Below are positions 3,088 to 62,622 of a DNA stretch of 64,000 bases, in pieces (the stretch's first letter is position 1; the number at the start of each line of letters is the position of its first letter). The notes beneath the pieces were generated by a model. That model saw nothing but the letters and a program-made list of their open reading frames with translations, had not been told where the DNA came from and did no database searches. This DNA is from Bacteroidota bacterium (GTDB lineage Bacteria > Bacteroidota > JABWAT01): positions 65,049-129,048 of the forward strand of contig JAIUNL010000004.1 in NCBI GenBank assembly GCA_020161835.1. Reading direction: 5' to 3'. The position numbers and the translations under genes are program-made.

Positions 3088-3176
3088 ATGCGGATTTGCG
3101 CGCAAAGGCGCTAAGACACAAAGAAAACGCTAAGCGGAGGGAGGGTTTTTTATTTAATTCATGGATGAAATTCGTA

Positions 3177-9198: not shown

Positions 9199-9254
9199 AA
9201 CAAAGGTTAAAGGTTTAATTGTAAAGGTTAAATGGGAAATGCAAATTTTCCCGC

Positions 9255-9865: not shown

Positions 9866-9978
9866 TTGAATACTTACAAGTAAATATTCAAAATGTTTCT
9901 TGTTTGATTAAACAATTTAAATACTTTAACTTCATTTATTCTAAACCCATCGAGTTTAAAAAAACCGGATAAAAAAAT

Positions 9979-11648: not shown

Positions 11649-11669
11649 CTATGATTCAGGAAATGAACT

Positions 11670-14206: not shown

Positions 14207-14351
14207 CCGGTTATCAGAAAAATTGATGCTGAGTTTGATTTACCATTAATCATTGCCCCTTAACCATTATAGCCTTTTTCCCTTCACTTTTACTATGTAA
14301 TTTGTCCTCCGAATCCATCAAAGGCAGGATTAAAATATCACTGTAACTTTC

Positions 14352-14725
14352 ACTTAAGAAAAATGGGTTTAACCACAGAAATTACTGAAGGAGCAGAAAG
14401 AAATTTCCCAATAAAAACCCGAATTCAATTCCTTTTCTGCATATTCTGTGTCTTCTGTGGTGAAAAGGTATTGGAGTCCTGTCCTGACTTTGTGATTTCA
14501 TCTGAAGAAAAAAAGAGTTTAACCACAGAAATTACAGAAGGCACAGAAGGAAATTCCCTATTAAAAACCTGAATTCAATTCCTTTTCTGCATATTCTGTG
14601 TCTTCTGTGGTGAAAAGGTATTGGAGTCCTGTCCTGACTTTGTGATTTCATCTGAAGAAAAATGGGTTTAACCACAGAAATTACAGAAGGAGCAGAAAGT
14701 AATTTCCCAATAAAAACCCGGATTC
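14352..14725. repeat. tandem array, ~2.5 copies of the 149-bp unit (family A)
   Basis: AACCACAGAAATT recurs at 14371, 14521, 14671; unit ~85% identical to the 9255-9865 units. Confidence 0.9.
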
Positions 14726-14761
14726 AAGATTCATTAACCATTAATCATTTACCATTAACCA

Positions 14762-15730
14762 TTATTCCCCTGCGTCTTCCGCATCAAAGCCTTGTTCTCT
14801 GAGCCACCGGCTGAAAATTCCTTCTGTTCCATGAGTTACGATGATTTTGTCAGCTCCGGATTCAGTTATCGCCTTATTTAATGCCGGCCAATCAGCATGA
14901 TCTGACAAAATAAATCCACGGTCAAACGCCTGCCAGTTTCTTCTCTTACTCACCGCCATCCACCCCGAAGCAAAAGCAACCGAATACGGTTCAAACTGAG
15001 TCATGAACGGTGATCCTTTCCCCGAAACCGGTGTGATCACCAATCCCCGTCTGAGTTCCTCCGGCTTCACTGAGTCAACCAGTAAATTGACTTTTGGAAC
15101 GGGAATTCCAAATTCCCGGAGTGACTGATTCATGGTCTCCACGGAAGGATGACAGAAAACAGGTCCGGTTGAATAATCGAGATGATGAAGAATCCGTTGG
15201 GCTTTTCCCAAAGAGTAGGCGTTCAATACGGAAGTTTTTCCTTCAGCCTGGTTTTGTTTCCACCAGCGGTTGATTTCAGCAAAAACCTGATCCTGATCGG
15301 GCCAGCGATAAATGGGAAGTGCAAAAGTTGCTTCAGTGATGAAGGTGTTGCATGTCACAGTTTCAAAAGGCTGGCAAACCCGGTCATTTTCAAGTTTGTA
15401 ATCTCCCGACGCCACCCAGACTTCACCCTGATACTCCACACGGACCTGAGCCGAACCGATGATATGTCCTGCCGGGTGCAAACTGATCGTAACGCCGTTG
15501 ATGGTTACCGGGACACCATACTCTTCAGTTCTGAGGCGAATATTTTTCCCGAGACGGGTTTTGAGAACCGGTTCAGAGTCACGGTGAGCGAAATAAGAAG
15601 CGTGCCCGGACCGGGCATGATCTGAATGTCCGTGCGTAATCACAGCCCGCTGAACAGAACGAAGCGGGTCGATGTAAAAATCTCCGGCTTCGCAGTAAAT
15701 TCCGTTGGGTGTAAATTGGAGAAGGGGCAT
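14762..15730 (-). CDS. metallo-beta-lactamase fold exonuclease (ligase-associated DNA damage response exonuclease-like)
   Basis: N-terminal LQFTPNGIYCEAGDFYIDP...VITHGHSDH motif (HxHxDH MBL signature); 322 aa. Confidence 0.5.
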   Translation of the reverse strand: MPLLQFTPNGIYCEAGDFYIDPLRSVQRAVITHGHSDHARSGHASYFAHRDSEPVLKTRLGKNIRLRTEEYGVPVTINGVTISLHPAGHIIGSAQVRVEYQGEVWVASGDYKLENDRVCQPFETVTCNTFITEATFALPIYRWPDQDQVFAEINRWWKQNQAEGKTSVLNAYSLGKAQRILHHLDYSTGPVFCHPSVETMNQSLREFGIPVPKVNLLVDSVKPEELRRGLVITPVSGKGSPFMTQFEPYSVAFASGWMAVSKRRNWQAFDRGFILSDHADWPALNKAITESGADKIIVTHGTEGIFSRWLREQGFDAEDAGE

Positions 15731-15850: not shown

Positions 15851-15949
15851 TCATCCTTATTACATTTCAAAAACCTTATAGCGTACAACGTCCCCCGTAA
15901 TACGTTTTGCGTTTTCCCGTGACCCGTAATAAGTGACCCGTAACCATCC

Positions 15950-16861
15950 TTAATCCATTACTGTTTTCATGCAGAAAACTGATCCGCCGGATTTCATATA
16001 TTCGCCGGTTTCAATCTGGATGACTTCATATCCTTCTTTCTGAAGAATATCAATAACGATTGAATTGGATTTTTGGATAACGGCAACTTTTTTCTCACCG
16101 GATTCATCAAAAACGGCATCGAAATTCAGAGAAAAAGTTTCCTTCACATCCGCCATCGGAATGTCATACACTTTTTTGTACATCTGATGGATGACGGCAA
16201 GTCCTTCTTTGCTGAAGGCATCGGGGCAGATGAGAACGGTATCATCATCAAGAGGAGAGAAACAGGTGTCGAGATGATAGAAATACGGCGAAACGAGCTC
16301 AAGGCAGATAATCGGTGTTTTCAGTTTTGCAGAAATTTCATCGTACATAAACCGGTCAGACCGGTGACCGTAACCACCCCAGATCAATCTTTTGTACGGA
16401 TGCGGAATGGCATCACCACCACCTTCAAAAAGTCCTTTTCCTTCCAGTTCAATGATTTTAAATCCCTGACGTTCACAGAAAAGCCGATGATGTTCCACTT
16501 CCCGCTGACGGCTTGGGTAACGCATGTGCGAAAGGACGACACAGCGGGTATCATCCACTACCCAGGAATAAATCGGATTGCAGCAGAACACCATATCTTC
16601 CAAACCTTCTGCACCCGGTTCAACAAACAAGCCACGGATAAGTCCACGTTTGTATAAAGCTTCATAGGTATCACGAAGTTGCTGCCACTGCTTTTTTGCC
16701 AGCCGCCGGTCGATGATACTGCCTTCCATGTACACGTTTTTAACGTCGATCACATCAAAATAATCGGGAATGGTGAGCAGGACGTTCTGCTGCGGCCCCC
16801 GGTCTTCAAGATCACTTATGGTAAAATCGGGTTTATCGTAGGCTTTGGCGAGTGGTTTCAT
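15950..16861 (-). CDS. amidinotransferase-superfamily protein (DDAH/arginine deiminase-like)
   Basis: 303 aa; C-terminal SGGSVFCMK resembles the catalytic Cys motif (GGxxxC) of the guanidino-group modifying enzyme superfamily; start overlaps selD stop. Confidence 0.45.
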   Translation of the reverse strand: MKPLAKAYDKPDFTISDLEDRGPQQNVLLTIPDYFDVIDVKNVYMEGSIIDRRLAKKQWQQLRDTYEALYKRGLIRGLFVEPGAEGLEDMVFCCNPIYSWVVDDTRCVVLSHMRYPSRQREVEHHRLFCERQGFKIIELEGKGLFEGGGDAIPHPYKRLIWGGYGHRSDRFMYDEISAKLKTPIICLELVSPYFYHLDTCFSPLDDDTVLICPDAFSKEGLAVIHQMYKKVYDIPMADVKETFSLNFDAVFDESGEKKVAVIQKSNSIVIDILQKEGYEVIQIETGEYMKSGGSVFCMKTVMD

Positions 16862-17917: not shown

Positions 17918-18020
17918 GGGGATAATTCCGAATTACGAATGACGAAACGAAGTTCTGCGAAGCAAATTTTAAATTTTGAATTTTAAAAATTGAAGAATGA
18001 AAAAAATCTTTGATTTAATT

Positions 18021-18130
18021 GTCATTCCCGCGAAGGCGGGTCATGAAATGTGCGAAGCAAGTCCAGTATTTATTCAAACAAACTAATACAAAATTCAATT
18101 ATGGATTCCCGCCTTCGCGGGAATGACATC
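18021..18130. repeat. two inverted copies of a small palindromic element forming a perfect 19-bp inverted repeat (TCATTCCCGCGAAGGCGGG ... CCCGCCTTCGCGGGAATGA) between selU and selD
   Basis: Seen in sequence; ~65-nt spacer. Confidence 0.8.
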
Positions 18131-18156
18131 AGTTTATACCATTAAACATTAACCAT

Positions 18157-19197
18157 TTACCATTGAGCCTTAAGCCTACCTAAAGCCTCCACCACCCGGT
18201 CAGCATTTCCCGCCGGATCAATCTTTTCGCATGGAACACGGATGATCGATTCCGGATCCCGTTTCGACGTCCCGAAATCATAGCCCGGATCGTAATAACG
18301 GGTCAGCAGAAATTCGGACAAGGTCAGCCAGTCACCGGTTTCAAGCCAGAGAAGACATTGTTTCGTATCGGTTCCGCCCAGTTTTTCCCGGATTTTCAGA
18401 ATTGATTTTTCCAGATTGACCGGTTCGGTTTTGCCGTATTCTTCAACCAGCTTTTTCGCCCGTTCCTGAACCGGAATATCCAGATAGATTACCGGCGCCG
18501 TTCTCATTTTCGGCCAGAAAAATTCATTGATCTGAATGGATCCGGTCTTGTGACTTTCATCTTCCAGCCAAACCACTTTTTCAGGATTTACCGAAACCCA
18601 ATCCAACCCAAGATCGTTGTCAAACTGTTCCTGAGTCGGTTGAGCAGGTTGATCGATGTCACCAAATGCAGAACCTTTGTGATTTGCAAGCAGTTCCAAA
18701 TCGATGATCTGCTGATTTCTTTCCGGAAGGAGGTGAAGCACATCTGTTTTCCCTGAACCGGTTCTTCCGCCAAGAATCACCAGTGGCTTTGAGGTTTTAA
18801 ATTCCTCAAGAATATGGCGGCGGTAAGCCTTATATCCGCCATTGACGATGTAAACAGTATATCCATAAAAACCGAGAAGCCAACCCACCGCACCGCTTCT
18901 CATTCCGCCACGCCAGCAATGAACCAAAACAACCCGGGAATCGGTAACCGATTTAACCTGTTCGATGATTGGCCGCATTTTGGGTCCGACAAAATCCAAC
19001 CCTTTGAGAATTGCCGCCTGCTTGCCTTCAGTTTTGTAAGTCAATCCGATGATATGCCGTTCTTCAACAGAAAAAAGAGGGAGATTCAGGGCACCTGGAA
19101 TGTGTCCCTGACGGAATTCTGCTTCGGTACGGACATCAAAAACGGGGAATTGTTTTCGTTTAACGAGGAATTCAGAATTGTCGCAATGGAACGTCAT
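18157..19197 (-). CDS. selU: tRNA 2-selenouridine synthase
   Basis: N-terminal rhodanese domain (VDVRTEAEFRQGHIPGALNLP, CWRGGMRS) and P-loop GGRTGSGKT; 346 aa; adjacent to selD. Confidence 0.8.
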   Translation of the reverse strand: MTFHCDNSEFLVKRKQFPVFDVRTEAEFRQGHIPGALNLPLFSVEERHIIGLTYKTEGKQAAILKGLDFVGPKMRPIIEQVKSVTDSRVVLVHCWRGGMRSGAVGWLLGFYGYTVYIVNGGYKAYRRHILEEFKTSKPLVILGGRTGSGKTDVLHLLPERNQQIIDLELLANHKGSAFGDIDQPAQPTQEQFDNDLGLDWVSVNPEKVVWLEDESHKTGSIQINEFFWPKMRTAPVIYLDIPVQERAKKLVEEYGKTEPVNLEKSILKIREKLGGTDTKQCLLWLETGDWLTLSEFLLTRYYDPGYDFGTSKRDPESIIRVPCEKIDPAGNADRVVEALGRLKAQW

Positions 19198-19700
19198 AGT
19201 TTTTGCAGAAAGTAAATTGTAAAGATACGAAATTTTAAAATACCGGGGACGGAATGGTTACAGGTCACGGATTACGGGTAACGGGAAATACAGGGATTTA
19301 GAAAAGTCTTGAAATCGATTTGCTTCTTCGCCGTCATCCGGTCGACGCCGCGGCCAATGAAGTGCCCTGACAAAAAATGTCAGTGTCTGCTTTTTAAAAT
19401 TTGCTTTGTGCTTAATCGTCTATGTTCTGACATTTTTCAGGGCCGAAGTGCCAGCCGCAAGTCAAAGAGCGGATGGGCGAAAAGGGATTTTGGGTACTTT
19501 TGTCCCGTCAAAAGTACCTCTCCGAAGGAAAAACCACCTATTTGGATGAAGGAGTTTTACAGAACTTCGTTAACCATCAGTGACTGAAAATTTATCAACC
19601 ATTTGAAAAAAAAACATGGATCCCGGCTCGTAGGCCGGGATGACAACTAAAGAGTCTGTATTTACCATTCATTTCCCTTTAATCTGTCAATTTCCTACCT

Positions 19701-20609: not shown

Positions 20610-20688
20610 GTAGGGCAGACCGCAAAGGCCCAAAGTCGCTAAGAAATTCAATCTTTTAGAAAATACAAAGAATTAAAAATTAATTTCT

Positions 20689-21108: not shown

Positions 21109-21232
21109 TCATTTTTTTGCTCTTAACTATAAAATAATTAGAGTCTTAGCGCCTTTGGGGTCTCTTTGAATTATCCTTTGTCTTTAACTTTAAAAAACTT
21201 AGCGTCTTAGCGCCTTTGGGGTCTCCTTTCCA

Positions 21233-26849: not shown

Positions 26850-27150
26850 CCGCCGGATAAAAACCATTGTTAACCGCAGAAAGAACAGAAATAACAGAAA
26901 AATAAATTCAACCTTTTAAACCTGATTTTATTTCCATTTCTGTCCATTCTGTATCTTCTGTGGTGTAAAAGCATTTGGCATTTTGTCTTCAACCAAGCCA
27001 TTCAAAAGTTGGCCAAAAAAACCAGTTTAACCGCAGAAATAACAGAAATAACGGAAAATTAAATTCAAATCTTTAAATCCGAATTCATTTCCCTTTCTGT
27101 CCATTCCGTATCTTCTGTGGTGAAAAAGCATTTGGCATTTTGTCTCAAAT
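26850..27150. repeat. tandem array, 2 copies of a ~150-bp diverged variant (family B) of the 149-bp repeat
   Basis: TTAACCGCAGAAA..ACAGAA...CTTCTGTGGTG core at 26869 and 27018; overlaps the TTG start of the downstream sigma-54 activator ORF. Confidence 0.85.
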
Positions 27151-28858: not shown

Positions 28859-28970
28859 GGGGAAAGCTGTTAGCTGTTGGCAATTAGCTGTTAGGTAAAT
28901 CCGAAAAAGGCTCAATGCGTAAGGCGTAAGTTTTAAGCGTCAAGGCTTGAATTTATAATTTAATAAAATG

Positions 28971-34052: not shown

Positions 34053-34248
34053 GGGCGTTTTGATTGGAAAATTCTAAACTCTAAATACATGGATCCCGGA
34101 TCAAGTCCGGGATCCAGCATTTTCCCCTTCCTATTTTCCCCAACAAAATCTTTCAGATTATCAGATTCAAATATTGACTATTAAAAAAAGGAAGTTAACC
34201 TTTATTATCATCTAAAATGTAAAAGAAAATCACTAATCCGGGTGCAGA

Positions 34249-37014: not shown

Positions 37015-39456
37015 ATGAAAACCAGACTTGCCTTCCTTTTCCTGTTGCTTTTTTCAAGTGCATTTGCTCAAAATTTCAAATCTTTTTCACAGGATGGCAA
37101 CTCCATTTTCATCCGCTCAGAAACCTCTGCTTTTCAGTTTACCTTTTATAAAAGTGACATTCTCCGGATGGATTTTCTTCCGTCCACATCCACCCTCATT
37201 GATTCTTCATATGTAGTCATTCAGCAACCGGATAAAACCATCCCGGTTAAAACAGAATATTCCGATTCTCTGATCCGGTTTTCATCCACCGGACTCACGG
37301 TTTCCTGTTCTCTGTTTCCCGTTCGGTTCACTTTTTCTGATTCCACTGGAAAAATTCTGCTGGCAGAACCTGTTGCCGGCGGATTTTCAACCGAAAATGA
37401 AGCACGGAAGGCCACCTTTTCTCTGAAACCGGATGACCATTTCTACGGCACCGGTGAACGGGGAACCAGTCTCGACAAACGCGGACAAAAATTCGGGAGT
37501 TACAACACTCAGATCGGCGGCTATTCAACTCCGCTCCCAACCATGAATCTGAATGTTCCGTTTTTCACCACAACAAATGGATATGCGGTTTACGTTGACA
37601 ACACCTACAAAGGAATTTTTGATTTTGGGCATTCCGACAAAACCACGTTTTCTTACACCGCAACCGGTGGTGAACTTTCTCTTTACCTGATTGCCGGCAA
37701 AACCGTTCAGAAACAACTTGAAAACTATACCTGGCTCACCGGCCGTCAACCCCTTCCTCCACGTTGGGCCTTTGGGTACATCCAGTCGAAAAACCGGTAC
37801 ACGACTGAAGCAGAAACAAGGGGCATCGTCAACACTATCCGTGAGAAAAACTTCCCCTGTGATGCGATCGTTCTCGATCTGGCGTGGTTTAAACACATGG
37901 GCGACATTTCGTGGGATGAAGAAGCCTGGCCGAACCATGAAAAAATGATTCAGGATTTTAAGCTGACGGGAATCAAAACCATTCTGATTACTGAGACCTA
38001 TCTGATTGAACCTTCCCACAATTTTAAGTTTGCCGTTGAAAACGGGTTTTTCACAAAAAAATATGACGGGAAGCCTTATTTGATGCCAAAATGGTGGTCG
38101 TGTAATTTTGGATGCAATGCTGCTTTACTGGATATGACCAATCCGGAAGCCAGAAAATGGTGGTGGAGTTTGCATCCCGGCTCTTTCGGTTCGTCAATTC
38201 CCGGCATCTGGACGGATTTGGGTGAACCGGAACGCCATCCGGAGGATATGATTCACTATCTCGGAAACACGAACAAAATCCACAACATTTACAATCTGCT
38301 TTGGGCACAAACGATTTTCGACGGATTTAACCAGCTTCAACCAGGAAAAAGAGTGATGAATCTGACCCGGTCGGGATTTGCCGGCATTCAGCGGTATGGT
38401 GTCCTTCCCTGGTCAGGTGATGTGGCCCGTGATTTTGGCGGACTTGCGGTTCAGCCACCGATGCTGCTGAACATGGGAATGTCCGGGTTGGCGTACCACA
38501 ACTCAGATATCGGCGGATATGCAAGAAATCCGACCACTCCTGAATTGTATATCAGGTGGATGCAATACGGCGTTTTCTCACCGATTGCCCGTGCTCATGG
38601 TGCAGGTACAAATGCGAATGGATCACCCACAGAACCCTGGATGTTTGGTGAGGAAGCAGAACGGATTTCACGTGAGTTTCTGAGGCTTAGGTATAGTTTG
38701 CTTCCCTATATTTACACGCTGGCTCATGAGAATTACAAATCCGGACTCCCAATCGCCCAGCCTTTATTTTTCACGGATCCTTCAGATAAAAACCTGCTGA
38801 ATGAAAGCGACTCTTATCTCTGGGGTGACAACTTCCTGATTTCTCCGGTTGTTGGAGCCGGAATCCGGGAAAAAGAAGTTGTGCTGCCGAAAGGAAACTG
38901 GATCAATTTCTGGACGGATGAAGTTGTGACTGGCGGAAAAAAAATATCCGTTTCTGCTCCGTTGGATAAAATGCCAATTTTCGTCAGATCTGGAAGTGTG
39001 ATCCCCATGGCTCCGGTTATGGCGTCTACCGATGAACGACCGTTGGACACGCTGATTATCAGAGTTTACCCAGAGTCCGGTACGCCCGGTTCTTTCACCC
39101 TTTATGAAGATGATGGTGAGTCATTGGAGTATCAGAAAGGGGCATTTTCGGAAACCACGTTTTCTCAATCCGGTTTGGTGAGTCAGGGGAAACAGGAACT
39201 CACTCTCACCGTAGAAAAACCAAAAGGCTCGTTCAAAGGTCAGGTTCAAAACCGGATTTACCTTTTTGAAGTCCGCCTGATGAAAGAAAAACCGGAATCG
39301 GTTTTGGCGGATGGGGAAAAAATCAAAGACTATTCGTCATTGGCTCATCTGCGGAAAGAAAATTCCGGATTCTTTTACGACCAGAAATCGGGCGTTTTAT
39401 TTGTTCAGGTAAGTGGTTCTTTGGAAAAATCTGTTGAAATAAAGGTGGGACGTTGA
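37015..39456 (+). CDS. glycoside hydrolase family 31 protein (intact)
   Basis: Signal peptide; GIWTDLGEPE nucleophile-region motif, WSGDVARDF and GMSGLAYHNSDIGGY acid/base region; 813 aa. Confidence 0.8.
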   Translation: MKTRLAFLFLLLFSSAFAQNFKSFSQDGNSIFIRSETSAFQFTFYKSDILRMDFLPSTSTLIDSSYVVIQQPDKTIPVKTEYSDSLIRFSSTGLTVSCSLFPVRFTFSDSTGKILLAEPVAGGFSTENEARKATFSLKPDDHFYGTGERGTSLDKRGQKFGSYNTQIGGYSTPLPTMNLNVPFFTTTNGYAVYVDNTYKGIFDFGHSDKTTFSYTATGGELSLYLIAGKTVQKQLENYTWLTGRQPLPPRWAFGYIQSKNRYTTEAETRGIVNTIREKNFPCDAIVLDLAWFKHMGDISWDEEAWPNHEKMIQDFKLTGIKTILITETYLIEPSHNFKFAVENGFFTKKYDGKPYLMPKWWSCNFGCNAALLDMTNPEARKWWWSLHPGSFGSSIPGIWTDLGEPERHPEDMIHYLGNTNKIHNIYNLLWAQTIFDGFNQLQPGKRVMNLTRSGFAGIQRYGVLPWSGDVARDFGGLAVQPPMLLNMGMSGLAYHNSDIGGYARNPTTPELYIRWMQYGVFSPIARAHGAGTNANGSPTEPWMFGEEAERISREFLRLRYSLLPYIYTLAHENYKSGLPIAQPLFFTDPSDKNLLNESDSYLWGDNFLISPVVGAGIREKEVVLPKGNWINFWTDEVVTGGKKISVSAPLDKMPIFVRSGSVIPMAPVMASTDERPLDTLIIRVYPESGTPGSFTLYEDDGESLEYQKGAFSETTFSQSGLVSQGKQELTLTVEKPKGSFKGQVQNRIYLFEVRLMKEKPESVLADGEKIKDYSSLAHLRKENSGFFYDQKSGVLFVQVSGSLEKSVEIKVGR

Positions 39457-40124
39457 ATGATGAATGTTGAAGGAAACTCGTAACCCGTCAACCGACGGGG
39501 TGGCCTCTTGGTAGCCAAATGACACAGAGCGCAATGGACGGTTAGCCTGTCGAATTGCCGCTTTTTTGAGGGTAAATGAATTTCAAATTCCCTGGCTTCA
39601 ACCCCGTAGGGGTGACCTGATTGTAACCCCGGGTGTCAACCCGGGGATAACGTCACCCCAAAAGCCAACCGCCCGGCCACCATTTCATTTGAAACTGGTA
39701 CCTCCGTTCCGGGCGGAACAAGATTGTTCTCCCGCTGATCCCGTTGATTTACACGGAAAATACGTTTTAACTTGGATATTCAGGATTGTCAGGATGAGAA
39801 AAGAATTGTTAATGATTAATGATCAATGGTTAATGAAATTCTGACTGTTTTGCAATCCCTTAGGGGTGACCTGATTGTAGAAAAAGAGAACCACCAACCA
39901 ACATCACCGCTCGACCACAAATCGTTTTTTAATTCCTTTCCCCCCTGTAATCAATCGATTACACCCACCTGTAACAATCTGCTTACAAGTCATCCCCCGA
40001 AAGGGTTAGTTTCCTTCCAAAACCAGCCCATTTCCCAAATAAATCACAAATTCAGCTTAATTTTTCCTGGTTAACATTTCCGGCACAGTCTTTTCAATAG
40101 TTTGGATCAGAAAACGGAAGGTAA

Positions 40125-40850: not shown

Positions 40851-40939
40851 TTCGACCGCAGAGACGCTGAGAACGCAGAGAAATGCAAATTATTAGGTTG
40901 ACCCCAAAGGCCCAAAGGCGCTAAGAATTCTGTTTTTTT

Positions 40940-41197: not shown

Positions 41198-41270
41198 GAC
41201 CTCTGGTCGGTATTCAGGAGTTTTAAGGAAGAATCTCCGACCCGGAGGTCGGAGTTACAAAAATGCGGGA
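41198..41270. repeat. ~70-bp double-hairpin palindromic element (TGTAACACCGACCTCTGGTCGG ... CCGACCCGGAGGTCGGAGTTACA); inverted copy at 43481-43550
   Basis: Reverse complement of this segment aligns almost base-for-base with 43481-43550. Confidence 0.75.
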
Positions 41271-41349
41271 TTTGAAACACCATTACCCATTTAACATTTA
41301 GCCTTGAGAATTTAACCTTTCCCCTTACGCCTTAAGCCTTAAGCCCGCC

Positions 41350-43302: not shown

Positions 43303-43480
43303 GGCGCGAAGATAAAAAACGGATGGGCGTATTCCGAAAGGAAGGACGAAGAATTAATGGTCAATGGTAAATGGTTAAGGGTTAATGGGGGAAATGACAG
43401 TGGTAATTCGTCCCCTTTTGAAGGGGGTGGCCCGTTCCGTTGATCGGATCGGGACGGGGGATGTTGTATTCTGTATTCCT

Positions 43481-43550
43481 GTAACTCCGACCTCCCGGTC
43501 GGAGATTTTTCCGGGAAATTTCAGAATACCGACCGGAGGTCGGTGTTACA
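43481..43550. repeat. inverted copy of the 41198-41270 double-hairpin element
   Basis: See above. Confidence 0.75.
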
Positions 43551-43614
43551 ATAAATTCCATTTACCATTGAGCATTTACCATTTAACATTATGCCTAACG
43601 CTTCCCGCCTTTCC

Positions 43615-44235
43615 TCAAAATTTCCCAAACTTGAAAATCAGATTGACCGAAACCGAAGTTAGGTCATTGCTTTGAAGGAAATCATTGTCATAACCGTTTA
43701 CCAGCCGGTAATTCAGAGTTGCAGCCAGTCTCATGTATTTCACAACATTGATTTCCCAGCCGATGTACGGTTCAAAAACGATGACAACCTGTTCATCCGT
43801 TTTCCGGTCAGCACCTCTTTCTTTCAGCCAGGCTGAACCGCCGCCAATCAATCCGCCTGCAAACCAGTGGCCCAGAGAGTCGGGATTATGGATGTATTCC
43901 AGCATCAATCCGCCATAATCCAACCCGATATGATAATCTTTCCCGGCAGGACTTTTACCGTTTGCCCGGATATTGTTGATCAGATTTCCGCCACCGCCAC
44001 CAATCACGTATTGGTGATTGATAATCCACCCCCCACGTCCACCGGAAAAAAATGCTCCCTCTTGGTTAACAGATCCATAACCTAAAATGGGTGCCCCATA
44101 ACCGCCGGAACTTGTCATTTCGGGAAGCAGGGTTTCTGGTTCTTCCTGTGCAAAGGAAAGAACCGGGAAAAGAAGAGTTAAAACAGAGAAAGTTAATGTT
44201 TTCATTTTTTTGTTCCTTGATAGTAAATATTGCAC
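43615..44235 (-). CDS. outer membrane beta-barrel protein (small porin/OmpW-like)
   Basis: Signal peptide (MKTLTFSVLTLLFPVLSFAQ, likely true start at 44205), Gly-rich strands, C-terminal FKFGKF. Confidence 0.5.
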   Translation of the reverse strand: MQYLLSRNKKMKTLTFSVLTLLFPVLSFAQEEPETLLPEMTSSGGYGAPILGYGSVNQEGAFFSGGRGGWIINHQYVIGGGGGNLINNIRANGKSPAGKDYHIGLDYGGLMLEYIHNPDSLGHWFAGGLIGGGSAWLKERGADRKTDEQVVIVFEPYIGWEINVVKYMRLAATLNYRLVNGYDNDFLQSNDLTSVSVNLIFKFGKF

Positions 44236-44594
44236 CTAAACTGAAACCCGTTTTAAGGTCATACCAGAAAGACACAGGTCGCTCCTAAGGAGCTTATTTT
44301 TTTTTCGCGTTTTGGATTCTACAAACAGGTCGCACCTCTGGTGCTGCAAGAAATAGAATCACCAAAATTGTTCTTGCCCCAATTACCAACGGCGTTCGGT
44401 TTTCATTTCTCACCCCGAAAGTGTTTCCAAGTTTAACCGGATCCGCGGTTCGTAACCGAACCTTGGACGGGATCTTCGCTTCGCTGGACTTTTAACTTAT
44501 CACTTACCACTTATAACTTACCACTCGTTCCGTTTACGTCCCCAATCCCGTTCCGGTTGCAGGTTTTCAGGAAGTTCGCTATCTTTGTTGTTCA

Positions 44595-44909
44595 TTGATG
44601 CGTGAGGAAGCTGTGTCAACCCGTGATTTAACCCTTGAAATTACCGATACTTTGATCGATTCAGGTGAGCCTGAAGCCAAAGTTATTTTGTTCAACGATG
44701 ATTATCATACGTTTGATGATGTCATTTTCCAGGTTGTAAAAGCCTGTGACTACTCTTTTGATCGTGCAGAGCAAATTGCCATGATCGTTCACTTCAAAGG
44801 CAAATGTACCGTCATTTCTTCTGACTTTCAAACCTGCCAGGAAGTGGCCGCCGTTTTATCAGAAATTGATTTGCTCGTCGAAATCGAACCTATTGAAACT
44901 GAAAAGTGA
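44595..44909 (+). CDS. clpS: ATP-dependent Clp protease adaptor ClpS
   Basis: VILFNDDYHTFDDVIFQVVKACDYSFDRAEQIAMIVHFKGKCTV matches ClpS core; ~100 aa. Confidence 0.8.
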   Translation: MMREEAVSTRDLTLEITDTLIDSGEPEAKVILFNDDYHTFDDVIFQVVKACDYSFDRAEQIAMIVHFKGKCTVISSDFQTCQEVAAVLSEIDLLVEIEPIETEK

Positions 44910-46694: not shown

Positions 46695-49174
46695 TGTCAG
46701 TGTTTCAGGTTTTTAAAGTCCTCACCTTCCACTATTACCGCCGATTTAAACTCCGCTGGATTTTATGCACCGCCGGTGTTGCCATTGGGGTTGCCGTGGC
46801 AACGTCAATCAATCTAACCAGCGACCGTGCGGTTTATTCCTTCTCAGAAACCCTTGAATCGGTAACCGGAACTGCCAACCTTCAGCTTACCGCCGATCCC
46901 GGACTGAGTCCCGATAGTTTATGGTCGGCGTCCTGGATCTGGAAAGTGGGTTATTACTCGCCCTTTATTCAGACAGCAGGGACTTCAAAAGGCAAAACCT
47001 ACCGGTTGTACGGATTTGATTTTGTAGGTGACCGCCGGATCCGCCAGCTGCAGACTTTGCAAAACGATTCAATTAAAACTTCCGTCAATGGCGTTTTTAT
47101 TCCTGTCGATTCCCCTTTGGGCAACGAAGGCGATACCGTCACGATTGTGATTAATGCGGTCCGGTATCAATTGATTATTGCCGGAAAAGTCAGCGCCATC
47201 AGCGGAAAACTTCCGCCACGAAATGCCATTTTTGCCGATCTTTCACTTCTGCTTCCTATCACGAAAACCGTTTCCGGACTCGATATTTCCGTTCCGGCAG
47301 ATTCACTCGATTCTGTTAAAAATAAACTTCAGCTTCAGTTCCCCACCGCCAGAATTGAAACTCTGAACGAGAGAAAACAAACCACAGCCGAACTGTTTTC
47401 TGCATTCCGGATGAATTTGCAGGCGCTGGGTTTAATTGCTCTTCTGGTTTCTGCTTACCTGGTTTACAACACGCTTTTCCTTTCGGTCATTCAAAGGCGG
47501 CAAACCATCAATCTCCTGCTTTCTTTGGGAAGTCACCGCCGTAGTATTTTCATTGCCTTGTTGGTTGAAGGTGCGTTTTTCGGAACGATTGGCGGACTTT
47601 TCGGACTTGCCGCCGGGATTCTGCTGGCTTCTTTGACCTACTCAGAAGTGTCTCAAACCCTGACCGCCGTTTTTCAGCTTTCTGACAGTCAGCTCAGTTC
47701 CTTTTCGTGGATGGCTCTTGCCGGATCGTATCTGACCGGCATCATTTTCGCCACTCTGGCGGCCTGGTATCCGGCATGGCTGGGTTCTGGAACTCCAATT
47801 TCCCGTTCGCTCAAACGCGGACAAAGTGAATTTTCATCAGCCAGATTAAAAAAATCGGTCATCATTGGCGTTTCTGCGCTTCTGTTGGTTTTATTTTCTG
47901 TCTGGATGGCATCGGTTGCAGAAAATCCGCTCTGGGGATATGCAGGCGTTACTTTTTCGATTCTGATGCTGAGCTTTCTTGCGCCTCCTGTTTTAATTTT
48001 ACTTACAAGCCTGCTGAAGAAACTGTCGTCTGCCGGAGAAATTCTGCTGGCAACCTCGTCAGTGAAAGAGCACATGGTGAAAGTTTCGATTGCCGTGGCG
48101 GCTTTAACTATGACGTTAAGTATGGCCGGTGCCGTCGGGATTATGGTTCACTCCTTCCGGACGACTTTGGATGACTGGTTAACCCGATCAATTGTTGCCG
48201 ATATTTATCTCAAATCATCATCCGATCCAACCCAGCTTGTCGGAACGATCAATCCGGACGTGATGGCAATTCTAAGAAATCACCCGATGACTGAAAATGT
48301 GATTACCCTGAGAACAACCCAGATTAAAATTGACGGACTTCTCACTGATATCGGCGCCAACGAAACCTCGGTTTATTTCAAGGCAAGTCCGGCCGATCTG
48401 GTTGCCGGAAATCCTGAGAATCTGGGGCTTCTGCAGAAAAAAGGCGGGGTTGCCGTGAGTGAAGTTTTTGCCAACAAGCACCATCTCACTGCCGGAGACA
48501 CCGTCCACATCCGTCAATATGCCTATCCGATTCTCGCTGTTTACCGGAATTACAGTTCTGACCGTGGATTTTTGCTGATGGATACGCTTCAGTTTTCACA
48601 GCTTTTCGGATATAAAGATCCGACCGCCGCTGCAGTTTTTCTGAAACCCGGAATTTCTTCGGATTCTGCCCTTTTAAGTCTCAGAGATTCCCTGAAAAAT
48701 TTCGAAATGGATTTATCAGTCAACAAAGACATCAGGGAAAATGCGCTGGCGATTTTTGATCAGACATTCAGAATGACACGAATTCTTCAGCTGATTTCGT
48801 TTTTCATTGCTTTACTGGCTGTCATCACCACTTTGAGTTCCATTATTCTTGAGCGGCGGAAGGATTTTGCGACTTTGGTCAGTCTGGGAAGTTCAACTTT
48901 TGGGATGTACCGTTCCTTGGCCATGGAAAGTCTGATTCTCACCGGAACCAGTCTGATTCTGGCTGCCGCCGGAAGTGCTGTGCTTTCTGCCCTGCTCATT
49001 CAGGTTATCAACCGGTATTCGTTTGGCTGGACGATTGTAACCGATATTCCATTTGGTGAACTGGCCTTTACCGGTGTGGTGATGATTCTGGTTTCCCTGA
49101 TTGCAGCAGCCTTCCCGATGAAAATGATCAAAAAACTTAATCTGCCTGAGAATCTGAAAGGAACGATCGGATAA
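46691..49174 (+). CDS. FtsX-like ABC transporter permease (two FtsX modules)
   Basis: 827 aa, ~10 TM segments in two 4-TM FtsX-type blocks separated by large extracytoplasmic domains; overlaps ATPase gene by 4 bp. Confidence 0.75.
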   Translation: MMSVFQVFKVLTFHYYRRFKLRWILCTAGVAIGVAVATSINLTSDRAVYSFSETLESVTGTANLQLTADPGLSPDSLWSASWIWKVGYYSPFIQTAGTSKGKTYRLYGFDFVGDRRIRQLQTLQNDSIKTSVNGVFIPVDSPLGNEGDTVTIVINAVRYQLIIAGKVSAISGKLPPRNAIFADLSLLLPITKTVSGLDISVPADSLDSVKNKLQLQFPTARIETLNERKQTTAELFSAFRMNLQALGLIALLVSAYLVYNTLFLSVIQRRQTINLLLSLGSHRRSIFIALLVEGAFFGTIGGLFGLAAGILLASLTYSEVSQTLTAVFQLSDSQLSSFSWMALAGSYLTGIIFATLAAWYPAWLGSGTPISRSLKRGQSEFSSARLKKSVIIGVSALLLVLFSVWMASVAENPLWGYAGVTFSILMLSFLAPPVLILLTSLLKKLSSAGEILLATSSVKEHMVKVSIAVAALTMTLSMAGAVGIMVHSFRTTLDDWLTRSIVADIYLKSSSDPTQLVGTINPDVMAILRNHPMTENVITLRTTQIKIDGLLTDIGANETSVYFKASPADLVAGNPENLGLLQKKGGVAVSEVFANKHHLTAGDTVHIRQYAYPILAVYRNYSSDRGFLLMDTLQFSQLFGYKDPTAAAVFLKPGISSDSALLSLRDSLKNFEMDLSVNKDIRENALAIFDQTFRMTRILQLISFFIALLAVITTLSSIILERRKDFATLVSLGSSTFGMYRSLAMESLILTGTSLILAAAGSAVLSALLIQVINRYSFGWTIVTDIPFGELAFTGVVMILVSLIAAAFPMKMIKKLNLPENLKGTIG

Positions 49175-49235
49175 TGGTTCATGGTCAATTGTTAATGGTT
49201 AATGGAAAACAATTTTCACTGAATATTTTTTGAGC

Positions 49236-49324
49236 ATGTCATCCTGAGTGATCCCGATCCCGAACGCTTTCGGGACGGGATTGTATCGAAGGACGACATG
49301 CCCCGAAAGTCAGGAAAGTGCCCT
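49236..49324. repeat. ~90-bp palindromic element (GTCATCCTGAGTGATCCCGATCCCGAACGCTTTCGGGACGGGATTGTATCGAAGG...GAAAGTGCCC); second copy at 57084-57171
   Basis: Two copies ~85% identical seen in sequence. Confidence 0.75.
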
Positions 49325-55895: not shown

Positions 55896-56040
55896 GCGTT
55901 CCCCACGACCCTCCAACCAAAGTCTAATGTCATTTCTTTGATCTGAAAGCGGATTCCCCGTAATTTTGCAACACTTTAATTCAATAACAATGAATTCCGG
56001 ATCGTTTGTGATGGAATTCCCCGATCGTAGGAGATGTGAG

Positions 56041-57024
56041 ATGAGTGAGATTCGCCATGACTGGACCCGGGAAGAAATCCGTGTTCTGTTCGACCGCCCG
56101 CTTTTAGACCTCGTTTTTGAAGCTGCATCAGTTCACCGCCAGCATCATAATGCCAGTGAAGTTCAATGGTCAACTCTGGTTTCTGTAAAAACAGGTGGCT
56201 GCCCCGAAGATTGTGGTTACTGCAGTCAATCTGCCCATTATGATACACCGGTTGACCGTACCCCATTAATGAATGTCGAAGAAGTGCTTGAAGCTGCCCG
56301 GATTGCCAAAGCAAACGGTTCAACCCGTCTTTGTATGGGTGCAGCATGGCGTTCCCCACGTCCCGGCAAAGACTGGGATCAGGTTCTTGACATGGTTCGT
56401 CAGGTCAATGCAATGGGAATGGAAAGTTGTGTAACTCTCGGAATGTTAAACGAAGAACAAGCAAAACAACTTGCCGAAGCCGGACTTACGAATTACAACC
56501 ACAATATTGACACCTCTCCCGAATTTTACGAAAAAATCATTTCCACCCGGAAATTTGATGATCGTATCAAAACCATTGAAAATGTTCAGAAAGCCGGAAT
56601 TGGTGTTTGTTCAGGCGGCATCATGGGATTGGGCGAATCCACAGAAGACCGCGTCGGATTTATTCATACGTTGGCAACACTTGCCAAACATCCCGATTCA
56701 GTACCGATCAATGCGTTGGTAGCCGTTGAAGGAACTCCCCTTTCGAACCGGCCCCCGGTTGAATCTTTTGAATTTATCAGAATGATTGCTGTTGCCCGGA
56801 TTACTATGCCCGGCTCAATGGTTCGTCTTTCTGCCGGTCGTCTTACCCTGACAGAAGAAGCTCAGGCTATGTGCTTCCTTGCTGGTGCGAATTCCATTTT
56901 TACCGGCGAAACCCTGCTGACAACTGAAAATCCGGGTTTTGATCAGGATCAGAGTTTGCTCAAAAAGCTCGGACTAAAAAGCCAGCCACTTCACGCCGTC
57001 GAACTGGATTTGTGCAAAGCGTAA
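56041..57024 (+). CDS. bioB: biotin synthase
   Basis: Radical-SAM CxxxCxxC ([13 protein letters not shown]), downstream [12 protein letters not shown] and biotin synthase C-terminal motifs; start chosen at MSEIRHD (ORF-track start 55966 is probably too far upstream). Confidence 0.85.
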
Positions 57025-57083
57025 AATCAGTTATAAGTTACAAGTGGTAAGTTACAAGTGATTTAATATCGGACTTCAAGCTT

Positions 57084-57236: not shown

Positions 57237-58400
57237 TTGCGGGATCGGGGCGGGGTGGTTCTTTTGAAATCCTCATTTTTCACACGCATTGAAACGGAAC
57301 TTGATGATCTGAAACAGGTCAGCAGGTTCCGTTCTTTATTTACAGGATCCGGGATTATTCTCTCCGGAAATGATTATCTCAATCTCTCCCATCATCCATC
57401 CTTAAGAAAAAAAGCAATCGAACTGGCCAAAACTGCCGATCTTGCATCTACCGGGAGCAGATTGCTTGGCGGAAACCATCCGCTGCATGAAGAACTTGAA
57501 TCTTTAGTTTCTTCCTGGAAAAAGTCAGAATCTGCACTTCTTTTTAATTCAGGCTACGATGCCAATATGGGCGTTATTCAAACCCTGATCCGGAAAGAAG
57601 ATATCGTTTTTTCGGACAAACTGAATCATGCCTGCATCATTGACGGGATCAGAGGAACCGGTGCCGTTACCGAACGGTTTAATCATCAGGATTTTACCGA
57701 TCTCGAACGGCGTCTGAAAAAACATGAATTCTCCAAAGCCGAAAAATTCATTATCGTTGAATCGGTTTATTCGATGGATGGGGATATTACCGACTTTCCG
57801 TCTTTGGTTCAGTTGTGCGAAAAGTATAACGCCCATCTGATTGTGGATGAAGCCCACGGAACAGGCGTTATCGGGCAAACCGGCGCCGGTGTTCTGGAAC
57901 GGGACGGATTGATGAATTATCCGCTGGCAACGATCCACACCTGTGGCAAAGCACTGGGTACTTTTGGCGCTTTTGTTTCCTGCCAGAAATCAGTCCGTGA
58001 TTATCTGGTTAATAAATGCCGCAATTTTATTTTCACGACCGCCCTTCCCCCGTGGCAGGCCGGTTTGATTGCTGAAGCCATCCGGCTTGTTCAGCCCATG
58101 ACCGCTGAACGTGACTATCTCATGAAACTGTCAGCAGATTTCAGAAAACGGGTGACAGAGAAAACAAAGTGGTCAACCGGAAATTCCAAAACCATGATTG
58201 TCCCAGTCATTATTGGTGAAGATTCTGAAGCTGTAAAAATTGCCTCTTTTTGCCGTGATGCCGGGTTTGACGTCAGAGCCGTTCGTCCGCCAACCGTTCC
58301 CGAAGGAACATCACGTCTTCGGTTAAGCTTCCACGCCGGAATTCAGGTGACTGACATGGAAAAACTGGCGGAATTGCTTACCAAAATGGTCAATGGTTAA
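57237..58400 (+). CDS. bioF: 8-amino-7-oxononanoate synthase (class II aminotransferase fold)
   Basis: GSGIILSGNDYLNLSHHP, PLP-lysine region TCGKALG; adjacent to bioB; true start probably downstream of 57237 (5' end overlaps a palindromic element). Confidence 0.75.
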   Translation: MRDRGGVVLLKSSFFTRIETELDDLKQVSRFRSLFTGSGIILSGNDYLNLSHHPSLRKKAIELAKTADLASTGSRLLGGNHPLHEELESLVSSWKKSESALLFNSGYDANMGVIQTLIRKEDIVFSDKLNHACIIDGIRGTGAVTERFNHQDFTDLERRLKKHEFSKAEKFIIVESVYSMDGDITDFPSLVQLCEKYNAHLIVDEAHGTGVIGQTGAGVLERDGLMNYPLATIHTCGKALGTFGAFVSCQKSVRDYLVNKCRNFIFTTALPPWQAGLIAEAIRLVQPMTAERDYLMKLSADFRKRVTEKTKWSTGNSKTMIVPVIIGEDSEAVKIASFCRDAGFDVRAVRPPTVPEGTSRLRLSFHAGIQVTDMEKLAELLTKMVNG

Positions 58401-58649
58401 TTGTTAATGGTAAATGGAAAACCTTTTGTCTTGTTTTGAAAGTCCCCCTTTGAAGACGAAGATCCTCGAACGCATTCGGGAGGGGAACGGCGAAGCCGGG
58501 GGGATGTAACTTGATTTTTTCCCTCCTGCGATCCCGGTCACAGAATCAGTCCATGCCTGAAACAAACGCACTTGATATCCCGAATACCCGCTTTTTAATT
58601 TGAATAAATCACTCAACCGGGAAATGATTTCATCAGGTCGGGTGTTAAG

Positions 58650-59167: not shown

Positions 59168-59614
59168 TTGTTTCCGTTGCTTTGTAAATCACGAGGAGAC
59201 TACATGCTCAAAATTTCATTGATTGACCGCAGTCTGTATTTCAAAGGACTTTTACTCCTGATCAGAAAAGATGCCCAAATCTCTGATCCGGAAATGATTC
59301 TGATGAAACAAATCGGGCAATATCTTGGATTTGAAACGGAATTCTGTGACACTGCAATCCGGGATATTTTGACCAACGAACATATTGTTGACAGTCCGCC
59401 TGTTTTTTCAACACCTGAAATTGCAGTAAGATTTATCAGGGATGGCATTACGATCAGTCATTGTGATCATGACATTCATCCGAAAGAATGGGATTGGCTG
59501 GAATCCGTTGCGAAAATTAATCAGCTTGACTTCGTGCCTCTTTTTGAAAAATGGAAAAAGGATCATTTTCAAAAGGAACTGATTCCGATCGAAGCGGAAA
59601 TGCTGACGGTGTGA
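59168..59614 (+). CDS. hypothetical protein (TerB-like helical domain?)
   Basis: 148 aa, helical; weak resemblance to TerB/DjlA N-terminal family. Confidence 0.3.
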   Translation: MFPLLCKSRGDYMLKISLIDRSLYFKGLLLLIRKDAQISDPEMILMKQIGQYLGFETEFCDTAIRDILTNEHIVDSPPVFSTPEIAVRFIRDGITISHCDHDIHPKEWDWLESVAKINQLDFVPLFEKWKKDHFQKELIPIEAEMLTV

Positions 59615-59658
59615 CGGTGTGACGGGGTAAGTGGTAAGTGGTAAGTGGTAAGTGGTAA

Positions 59659-60132
59659 GTGGTAAGATTTTACTTAAACGAAATCAAGAAAATGAAACCA
59701 TCCATACAAAATTTCATTTCAAAAAAGCGGATTGCAGTTGTTGGTTTTTCACGGAATAAAAATAAATTCGGGACCGCAGCCTTTTCCGAACTTCAGAAGC
59801 GTGGATTTGAAGTGTTTGCCATTCATCCAAACGAAACTGAAATAAACGGAGTTGAGTGTTACCCTGATTTGAAATCAGTTTCAGGGAAGGCAGAAGCTGT
59901 CTTTATTTCCATCCCGCCAAAATCAGTTCCACCGGTTTTAAAAGAAGCTGCCGATGCCGGATTCAAATTGGTCTGGCTTCAGCAGGGAGCGGAATCAGAA
60001 GAATCCACCGGTTACGCCACAGAACTCGGACTCGAACTCATTTCAGGAAAATGCATTCTGATGTATGCTCCGCCTGTCACCTCCTTCCACAAATTTCATC
60101 AGGTCGTCTGCAAATGGACGGGAAATTTTTAA
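59659..60132 (+). CDS. CoA-binding domain protein
   Basis: KRIAVVGFSRNKNKFGTAAFSELQKRGFEVFAIHPN Rossmann-like CoA-binding signature; 157 aa. Confidence 0.65.
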   Translation: MVRFYLNEIKKMKPSIQNFISKKRIAVVGFSRNKNKFGTAAFSELQKRGFEVFAIHPNETEINGVECYPDLKSVSGKAEAVFISIPPKSVPPVLKEAADAGFKLVWLQQGAESEESTGYATELGLELISGKCILMYAPPVTSFHKFHQVVCKWTGNF

Positions 60133-60283
60133 ATAACGGTGACAAGGGACAGGGGACAAGTGACTGAAATTCCAGTTACAACCTGTCCCGCTACTGCGGG
60201 AGGTTACGGATTAAATTTTCGAAAACACGAATTTCCCTACTATCTACTAACTACTGTCTACTAACTACTTAAGAATTAAAAAA

Positions 60284-62207: not shown

Positions 62208-62622
62208 GGGGAAGGGAAGCTATTAGCTATTAGCTATTAGCTTTTGGCTGTTGGGTAATGCAATTCAAGGCATAGGAAATAAGGTTTAAAGCACTAGGGA
62301 AAAGGCGTAAGGTTAAATTCTAAAAGGTAAAGGTTAAATTTTTTAGACCAATTCACTATTGTGCCAGACTTTATCTAATCCCGGCAGGATTGAATCTGAA
62401 TAGCCCCGGGTGGAACCCGGTGGATAGTTTCGGGTTTATCCACAAACCCCGTATGGGGTTTAATACTGTTCACCCTTTTCGTCCGGAATAAAATCACCAG
62501 TTTCAACAAATTTTGTGGCCGGACGAATTTCTTTTATTTCCTTTTCATTCCGTCAGCTAAAGCAGACGGCAATAAATTCTCAGAAACCAAAAAATGACCT
62601 TAAAAACTGGTTACGGTCTGAT

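Follow-up and report, generated by a model that had tools for sequence, protein, structure and literature searches.

Heptanucleotides are the most abundant class of long simple sequence repeats (SSRs) in many prokaryotes according to the survey of Mrázek, Guo and Shah (2007, LSSR5-11), which, as cited in PMC4679880 and PMC4692102, attributes them to polymerase slippage on a footprint of about 7 nt and not to a physiological role. As summarised in those two papers, the survey does not speak of proximity to stop codons, of strand polarity or of the lineage considered here. In this work we describe tandem arrays of 7-nt units in a 64,000-nt stretch of a Bacteroidota genome (contig JAIUNL010000004.1, positions 65,049 to 129,048; hereafter the window), where most of them stand just behind the stop codons of genes such as bioF and bioB.

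Heptameric G-rich SSRs have been described in Xanthomonas (unit GGGAATC) and Nostoc (GGGGA(T/C)T) by Rehm et al. in 2015 (PMC4692102). About 90% of these repeats are intergenic, typically with some 4-5 copies and at a mean distance of 28 nt from the upstream open reading frame (ORF). They are separated from the stop codon by 0-50 bp, overlap included, with the G-rich strand as the coding strand, whereas upstream of ORFs the G-rich strand is the non-coding one. They are rare between divergent genes, occasionally form inverted array pairs and occur near housekeeping genes; the flanking genes are kept in relatives while the repeats vary in length and sequence. The Xanthomonas repeats are mostly transcribed, and no function has been identified for them (PMC4692102).

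TAACTGA direct repeats of 2-6 copies are found in the intergenic DNA of Beggiatoaceae, cyanobacteria and five Bacteroidetes (MacGregor 2015, PMC4679880). They place stops in all three frames and overlap upstream stop codons, and binding of Csp or S1 proteins to heptamer repeats has been proposed. The same study notes other heptamer repeats in Bacteroidetes spacers, and one array of Flexibacter litoralis that stands reversed directly after a stop; beyond that paper, our literature search found nothing on 3'-end heptamers specific to Bacteroidota. The STRR sequences of cyanobacteria are also 7-bp intergenic tandem repeats of unknown function, for which a role in transcript stability or translational coupling has been suggested (PMC2670836). 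Their hosts are filamentous (heterocystous) cyanobacteria and their units differ, whereas the nearest genomes to the window are Bacteroidota metagenome-assembled genomes (MAGs). The STRR1 unit is CCCCAGT, and a search with it as CCCCAGTCCCCAGT gave no match in the window within 2 mismatches. Phase-variation SSRs have units of 1-5 nt (occasionally 7) within ORFs or promoters of surface or restriction genes, whose expression they switch. The window arrays share with them a copy number that changes by slippage but, unlike them, follow the stops of bioF, bioB, FtsX/MacB, GH27, ABC-F and rhodanese genes.

We found that the window arrays are heptanucleotide SSRs and form a dense case, not predicted to make G-quadruplexes (G4), of this already described class: they consist of tandem 7-nt units, period 7 is in excess, they are biased to non-coding DNA and they vary in length by whole units. 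They also follow the positional rule of Rehm et al., lying near ORF ends with the G-rich strand coding after stops and mostly non-coding before starts, and they resemble the Xanthomonas and Nostoc repeats further in being length-variable, rare in divergent spacers and occasionally paired in inverted orientation, and in standing by housekeeping genes (bioF, bioB, an FtsX permease and GH27). They differ in that their units are A/T-rich (AATGGTT, GGTAAGT, AGCTATT, GGCTTAA), in that several unit families occur together instead of one, in their Bacteroidota host and in their higher local density, a total array length of about 720 bp amounting to roughly 8% of the intergenic DNA. No G-quadruplex was predicted for the five arrays submitted to the ViennaRNA G4 model, which did predict one for GGGAATC x4 and GGGGATT x4 controls; most window units carry at most GG, not a tract of three or four G. 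Because stop-proximal polarity of the coding strand is seen here with units for which no G-quadruplex is predicted, a G4-based explanation for the Xanthomonas and Nostoc repeats is weakened.

As for the TAACTGA repeats, in Beggiatoaceae one unit dominates and the arrays mostly lie just upstream of starts in forward orientation, whereas in the window AATGGTT is the dominant unit and most arrays come after stops. TAACTGA-like sequence occurs in a 5'-leader array at 60237 and in the complement of the array at the end of bioB (TAACTTATAACTGA). TAACTGA tandems are not enriched in the window (2 near-matches to TAACTGATAACTGA with at most 2 mismatches, against 0.37 expected), and one of these two is that same bioB-end complement. 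The preliminary description of this DNA had taken such runs for a feature class not yet described; heptameric SSRs, their intergenic bias, their stop proximity and their three-frame stops are, however, published (PMC4692102, PMC4679880). On present evidence the arrays are no new kind but belong to a long-known, functionally unexplained class, to which they add an uncultured Bacteroidota lineage with this density, in which about one third of the genes whose 3' spacer reaches 45 nt or more (13 of 37) are followed by an array.

We consider it probable that the arrays are slippage-driven heptanucleotide microsatellites, kept to untranslated DNA and oriented by a polar filter, with the stops in several frames as a by-product.

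Period-7 arrays and their placement

ORFs were mapped greedily (58 ORFs, 86% of the window), and arrays were detected with Tandem Repeats Finder and a self-match scan (score of at least 10) against a background of dinucleotide shuffles; the intergenic shuffles took only the 9.06 kb between ORFs. Runs of 6-8-bp words had been reported at twenty sites. We found real repeats at 19 of them, while 14228-14262 was weak in the self-match scan of these sites and holds no convincing period-7 array. The best self-match period is 7 at each of the 19, and therefore the supposed words of 6-8 bp are heptamers, with a unit of exactly 7. The four runs quoted as examples read as given, and the gene labels bioF (a class-I/II aminotransferase of bioF type), FtsX, GH27 (an alpha-galactosidase) and bioB hold.

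Over the whole window Tandem Repeats Finder returned about 20 arrays with a period of 7, or of 14 as a multiple of 7. In the self-match scan there were 14 period-7 arrays against 0.3 in shuffles and 11 period-14 arrays against none; no other period from 3 to 16 was enriched, with 4-6 and 8-12 near background. By the two methods together, copy number ranges from 2.6 to 7.6 and the match between units from 66 to 100%. The intergenic DNA holds 15 period-7 arrays where 0.54 are expected (maximum 2 in 100 shuffles), and the 55 kb of coding DNA only 3. Such runs are thus not equally frequent in shuffled intergenic sequence, and their recurrence along the 64 kb is borne out.

The arrays are also enriched at gene ends: 13 of 21 overlap a stop codon or lie within 16 nt of one, where 4.1 would be expected if they were spread evenly over these spacers (P~5e-5). 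Neither of the two conditions under which the preliminary description was to be rejected is therefore borne out. Arrays are present in all 4 spacers between convergent genes, in 10 of the 32 between co-directional genes and in 1 of the 4 between divergent genes. Most arrays follow stops, and only 4-5 of about 24 lie near start codons, 6-75 nt upstream.

Other Bacteroidota loci, 1.4 Mb in all, also have 7 as their commonest tandem period, with 41 arrays where period 6 has 22 and period 8 has 7; the arrays there again sit at gene boundaries. The Maribacter loci among them (L031, L033, L049 and L060; for example L031 424-489) show composite arrays of (AGTTCAG)n and then (AACTCAT)n, situated between a stop and the start that comes after it, and TACTGAA x3-5, 6 nt before starts, at what appears to be an orthologous site in many Maribacter genomes.

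Array turnover between strains

The nearest genome to the window is the MAG UWPOB_BACT1 (L001; BioF 96% identical in amino acids, coding DNA 87-94% identical), and the next is MAG.504 (L002; BioF 69%). A JGI metagenome contig (L201) represents a strain that shares 95-99% identity with the window, and for a Logan contig of SRR5422910 the identity is 100%.

The perfect arrays are length-polymorphic between near-identical strains. The GGTAAGT array (59626..59666, plus strand; a perfect x5.9 array, 11 nt past the stop of ORF 59168-59614) has six units in the window and seven in the JGI strain. The array behind the GH27 gene (62218..62254, plus strand; (AGCTATT) x3.6 and then TTTTGGCTGTTGG, 10 nt past the stop) has exactly one unit fewer in both the JGI strain and UWPOB_BACT1. 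Apart from these two 7-bp indels, the window and the JGI contig align without gaps over a 4-kb block, at 99.3% identity. Slippage, one of the processes put forward in the preliminary description, is accordingly seen at work in the comparison with relatives.

Furthermore, arrays swap their unit. At the position of the perfect GGTAAGT array, UWPOB_BACT1 carries a degenerate array of a different unit. Behind bioB (55966-57024) the array at 57029..57060 (plus strand; AGTTATA AGTTACA AGTGGTA AGTTACA AGTG, 4 nt past the stop) has changed its units in concert, with AGTTACA/AGTGGTA in the window and units such as GGGACAA, GGGACAC, GGGACAG and GTGACAA in UWPOB_BACT1. Together with the whole-unit indels, this shows that the arrays expand, contract and exchange units by strand slippage.

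The array of bioF (58385..58421, plus strand; AATGGTC AATGGTT AATTGTT AATGGTA AATGGAA, 5.3 units) codes the last five codons of the gene (KMVNG) and its TAA stop. In the JGI strain the array reads GGTTTAA GGCGTAA GGTTTAA GGATAAA TGGTTAA TTGTTAA, and BioF ends there with KLAELLAGNRFKA (...AGNRFKA), as against KLAELLTKMVNG (...TKMVNG) in the window and in UWPOB_BACT1. Turnover of the array has therefore rewritten the tail of the protein and supplied its stop. The change touches only the last 5-7 residues, and distant BioF orthologues have other ends and no arrays. The arrays lie almost only outside ORFs, yet they can overrun the 3' end of an ORF and replace its last codons, and bioF is a clear case of a housekeeping enzyme in which strains differ in both the stop codon and the C-terminal residues through microsatellite turnover.

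In MAG.504 we found no array at the orthologous gene ends that were compared (bioB) and only one period-7 array in 21 kb, for which reason this genome was left out of the turnover comparison; the high array density is specific to the lineage of the window. The pattern of turnover fits the life cycle of a microsatellite, with birth, expansion while the array is perfect and decay by substitution; older arrays would decay through point mutation into what had been read as degenerate words. Selection would exclude arrays from ORFs, presumably since 7 bp breaks the reading frame and a stop is present in most units rich in A, T and G. Where an array overruns the 3' end of an ORF, the first in-frame stop inside it would become the stop of the gene, which would explain why arrays seem to start at the stop codon. 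In practical terms the arrays are hot spots for assembly and for strain-level length variation, can shift called stop codons and could act as strain markers.

We also considered whether the arrays are footprints or targets of mobile DNA, such as repeated 7-bp target-site duplications left by hairpin elements resembling repetitive extragenic palindromes (REP) or miniature inverted-repeat transposable elements (MITE), or by insertion sequences. GC-rich hairpin elements of the form GATCCCG...CGGGA are over-represented (8 matches against 0.12 expected; 19619, 34092, 49250-49280, 57102, 57226 and 60757). A copy of about 100 bp (about 49225-49320) stands just past the FtsX array and is missing in UWPOB_BACT1, so that the family looks mobile (REP/MITE-like). 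In UWPOB_BACT1, moreover, an IS3-family element (11197-12612 of locus L001; an rve integrase ORF with a helix-turn-helix ORF upstream) that is not in the window directly follows the bioF array. However, these insertion points do not coincide with the edges of the arrays, and an array looks the same with the element and without it. Units are also gained and lost with no element nearby, many arrays have none, and single target-site duplications cannot give up to 7 identical units. Rehm et al. likewise found no link between heptamer repeats and mobile elements (PMC4692102), and we regard an origin in mobile DNA as very improbable.

Strand polarity, stop content and possible RNA-level roles

Several observations are not predicted by purely neutral slippage and weigh against it as the full account. 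First, the arrays cluster tightly at stops instead of occurring anywhere in the spacer. Second, they are polar: read along the sense strand of the preceding gene, the 3' arrays consist of 33% A, 29% G, 30% T and 8% C, with more G than C in 17 of 18 (P~1e-4). The polarity is also present in units of TTAATGG type, which have stops on both strands, and it recurs in unrelated DNA: a metagenome scan for (AATGGTN)3 gave at least 133 arrays, and among the matches listed those at 3' ends have the G-rich strand as sense strand by 32:9. Third, the units resemble one another more closely than do random heptamers matched in composition (P~5e-4). Fourth, some arrays are conserved at or above the coding identity of 87-94% with UWPOB_BACT1, the bioF array being identical there at 36 of 37 positions and the array at 60141 at 100%. 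Polarity, stop clustering, shared vocabulary and conservation may leave room for a function at the RNA level. The FtsX array (49174..49205, plus strand; AATGGTT family, beginning within the TAA that terminates the FtsX/MacB permease gene) is also stable against UWPOB_BACT1, where it keeps its copy number with 29/34 identity.

The shared vocabulary runs counter to the earlier statement that the words differ freely between loci, as AATGGTT (at most one mismatch, any rotation) accounts for 8 of the 18 3' arrays; smaller families are GGTAAGT/AGTTACA, AGCT(A/G)TT and GGC(T/G)TAA. AATGGTN as a universally favoured heptamer was ruled out, with 109 viral-contig loci against 45, 91 and 66 for controls of the same composition.

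Next, the polarity tracks gene orientation. Within the one stretch of 64 kb, the minus strand is the G-rich one in the arrays behind the minus-strand genes at 14762, 18157, 41350 and 43615, which rules out a replication-strand cause. Among the five arrays before starts, the sense strand has much C and little G in three (60237 CTACTAA, 43356 TTAACCN, 44488 ACTTACC), while G equals C in 17924 and the weak array 19258 is G-rich. For the metagenomic (AATGGTN)n arrays at 5' ends, the C-rich strand is the sense strand in 27 cases versus 12 among the matches listed. Under the slippage explanation, a transcription-polar filter would set the orientation that survives, leaving arrays C-poor and G-rich in the sense strand behind stops and mostly C-rich and G-poor in leaders.

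Among the metagenomic matches listed, the 3'-end bias toward G-rich sense strands is 11:1 for units with stops only on the G-rich strand, 4:1 for those with stops on both and 1:2 for those with stops only on the C-rich strand, a suggestive result from a small sample, and one that is partly circular since an ORF ends at its first stop. Stop availability apparently accounts for part of the polarity, not for all of it.

In the window, a stop triplet stands on the sense strand in 15 of the 18 consensus units, compared with 57% expected from composition (P=0.02), and antisense stops are equally enriched (10 of 18 units versus 30%). The median distance by which every frame has met a stop is 40 nt, sooner than the 72 nt of composition-matched shuffles (P~0.01) and sooner than in 3' flanks that have no array. 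The earlier suggestion of stops in several frames stands to that extent; the enrichment is modest and inconsistent, as only 4 of 13 flanks have three-frame stops within 30 nt and 3 of 13 do not have them within 90 nt.

These data bear on a proposal made with the first description, a selected multi-frame stop function; in this reading the arrays would be zones that halt ribosomes which have read through or shifted frame, ahead of a terminator hairpin or the next gene downstream. The early three-frame stops and the excess of sense stops would agree with such a role, as would the 11:1 and 1:2 ratios above, and since stop triplets contain no C it would favour C-poor sense strands. However, three copies of any stop-bearing heptamer give stops in all three frames because 7 mod 3 = 1, so that the coverage comes automatically with the period, and an array abutting an ORF end must hold an in-frame stop because ORF ends are defined that way. 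Coverage is uneven, and some units have no sense stop at all (for example GACAAGG and GGTTACG). The antisense enrichment would be unneeded, AT-rich spacers provide stops with no tandem structure, arrays also occur before starts, and polarity remains in units with stops on both strands. We therefore think a selected stop function quite unlikely.

Fold predictions leave the arrays by themselves unpaired or weakly paired, and a strong separate hairpin (z <= -2.9) lies 10-60 nt downstream in 6 of 14 3' flanks, giving a layout of stop, array and hairpin in about half of cases. Terminators or structured RNAs were ruled out as an identity for the arrays, which are direct repeats that stay unpaired and are distinct from the nearby hairpins. 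A consensus terminator scan of the window did not exceed shuffles (30 versus 24.5), Rfam 15 had no match in the window at gathering thresholds and a tRNA scan of the window found nothing.

A stronger competitor holds that the arrays are selected cis-acting RNA elements of the 3' untranslated region (UTR), with arrays of complementary type in 5' leaders, and that slippage only tunes their copy number. They could then serve as an unstructured multivalent platform, with one site every 7 nt for a cold-shock or S1-domain-like protein or for a ring oligomer (HutP), or as Rho-resistant C-poor spacers between stop and terminator hairpin. Consistent with this, polarity follows transcription and not the chromosome strand (4 of 4 minus-strand genes with 3' arrays) and is the same in unrelated metagenomic arrays, in Xanthomonas and in Nostoc. 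The unit vocabulary is common within the genome, about half of the 3' arrays stand unpaired 10-60 nt before a strong hairpin, and some arrays are highly conserved in UWPOB_BACT1. The proposed Csp/S1 binding (PMC4679880) and the transcription of most Xanthomonas repeats (PMC4692102) point the same way. Against it, both factor and phenotype are so far unrecognised, and MAG.504 lacks the arrays, so that single genes do not need them. Units vary by locus and are swapped wholesale between strains while the gene is retained, polarity is weaker outside the lineage (9:5 in the other Bacteroidota loci) and polarity follows in part from the definition of ORF ends. On these grounds a selected cis-acting role seems possible but improbable.

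Slippage, the explanation we prefer, is further supported by a stop content near compositional expectation, by the lack of folding of the arrays themselves and by their absence at the orthologous ends of MAG.504; most likely, the arrays are transcribed, unstructured segments of 3' UTRs and leaders with little or no sequence-specific function. A broader idea, which we hold only tentatively, is that the rule of position and orientation is general to heptamer arrays whatever their G4 potential and arises from an uncharacterised mechanism coupled to transcription or translation. So far the rule extends over Proteobacteria, Cyanobacteria and a Bacteroidota lineage with A/T-rich units. Such a mechanism might be an RNA-binding factor with a 7-nt register, or a backup-termination zone at ribosome release, that selects arrays; alternatively, R-loops or uncoupling might drive repeat expansion exactly where translation stops. 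If this were so, arrays would repeatedly rewrite protein C-termini, as they have for BioF.

Further arrays and neighbouring repeats

The ORF before the GGTAAGT array ends in a micro-duplication of its own (59604-59625, plus strand), an 8-bp TGACGGTG x2.8 that takes in the TGA with which this ORF (59168-59614) stops. The duplication is missing in UWPOB_BACT1, where the sequence is CTGACGGTGTAA with no repeat. A second array downstream of GH27 (62310..62340, plus strand; degenerate AGGTTAA/AAAGGTA) lies about 100 nt past the GH27 stop and is kept, with substitutions, in UWPOB_BACT1. The conserved array at 60141..60164 (plus strand; GACAAGG GACAGGG GACAAGT GAC) lies 8 nt past the stop of a CoA-binding gene, within a conserved hairpin region with a fold z of -3.9. 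Close to it, the 5'-leader array at 60237..60269 (plus strand; CTACTAT CTACTAA CTACTGT CTACTAA CTACT) stands 15 nt before the ATG at 60284, and its orthologue in UWPOB_BACT1 reads TAACTGA CTCCTGT CTTCTGA CTTCTGA.

Further arrays follow minus-strand genes. At 14732..14764 the sense sequence is TAATGGT TAATGGT AAATGAT TAATGGT TAATG, beginning with the TAA stop of gene 14762-15730. At 18140..18180 an array (sense GGTAGGC TTAAGGC TCAATGG TAAATGG TTAATGT TTAATGG) covers the last 6 codons and the stop of a rhodanese-domain gene. The array at 43558..43590 (sense AATGTTA AATGGTA AATGCTC AATGGTA AATGG) is 24 nt past the stop of gene 43615-44235 and is followed by a hairpin, and that at 41296..41345 (sense GGCTTAA GGCTTAA GGCGTAA GGGGAAA GGTTAAA TTCTCAA GGCTAAA) is 4 nt past the stop of an ABC-F gene, with an 8-bp GC hairpin some 60 nt beyond. 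A weak, degenerate GGTTACG/GGTCACG array at 15893..15945 begins 5 nt past the stop of gene 15950-16861 and has a period-7 score of only 6.

On the plus strand, an array at 9202..9236 (AAAGGTT AAAGGTT TAATTGT AAAGGTT AAATGGG) lies 3 nt past the stop at 9198. The array at 28865..28937 consists of degenerate AGCTGTT x4, 6 nt past the stop at 28858, followed by GCGTAAG x3 at 28917-28937. At 39454..39471 (TGAATGA TGAATGT TGAA) the array begins within the TGA that closes gene 37015-39456, and at 39809..39835 (TTAATGA TTAATGA TCAATGG TTAATGA) it stands in a long spacer whose adjoining short ORFs are doubtful. A short array at 34069..34085 (AAATTCT AAACTCT AAA) is 16 nt past the stop at 34052.

Before starts, the minus-strand leader array at 17924..17946 (sense TTCGTCA TTCGTAA TTCGGAA) is 6 nt from the start at 17917, and that at 43356..43385, also on the minus strand, carries AATGGTN in opposite orientation (sense TTAACCN, C-rich) 53 nt before the ABC-F start. 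The latter and the array at 43558-43590 form an inverted AATGGTN pair around a hairpin-rich spacer of about 170 bp, which resembles the paired inverted repeats of Xanthomonas. Two plus-strand arrays lie in divergent spacers: 44488..44520 (ACTTTTA ACTTATC ACTTACC ACTTATA ACTTA, the complement of GGTAAGT/TAAGT units), 74 nt before the start at 44595, and the weak 19258..19284 (TTACAGG TCACGGA TTACGGG TAACGG; period-7 score 6).

Other repeats occur beside the arrays. A family of 148-157-bp tandem repeats is present at 9268-9835, 14348-14727 and 26859-27145 (with 3.8, 2.6 and 1.8 units, whose identity between loci averages some 71%), always in plus orientation and with an imperfect inverted repeat AACCACAGAA...TTCTGTGGT in each unit; at two of these three places a heptamer array lies immediately next to the repeat, and the family has no Rfam match. 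An E-value Rfam scan of 9150-9900 gave chance-level matches only. The ORF at 9330-9758 (minus strand) within this repeat is probably spurious, and a weak match to the Rfam Chlorobi-1 small RNA at 9229-9290 (18 bits against a gathering threshold of 50, E = 0.033) is probably due to chance.

Two minus-strand genes have, downstream of their heptamer arrays, a hairpin CTCCGACCTCCGGGTCGGAG that is repeated at 41235-41254, 43485-43504 and about 43520-43540; in the fold, two of its copies pair into a long stem (z = -4.1). At about 18020-18128 on the minus strand, a short way downstream of the array of the rhodanese gene, a perfect 21-nt inverted repeat TGTCATTCCCGCGAAGGCGGG ... CCCGCCTTCGCGGGAATGACA encloses a loop of about 67 nt (fold z = -5.7) and may be MITE-like. 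Finally, a further family of intergenic words (CCAAAGGCGCTAAGA / CTTAGCGCCTTTGG and similar) follows several genes, at about 3090-3140, 20610-20660, 21150-21230 and 40855-40930.

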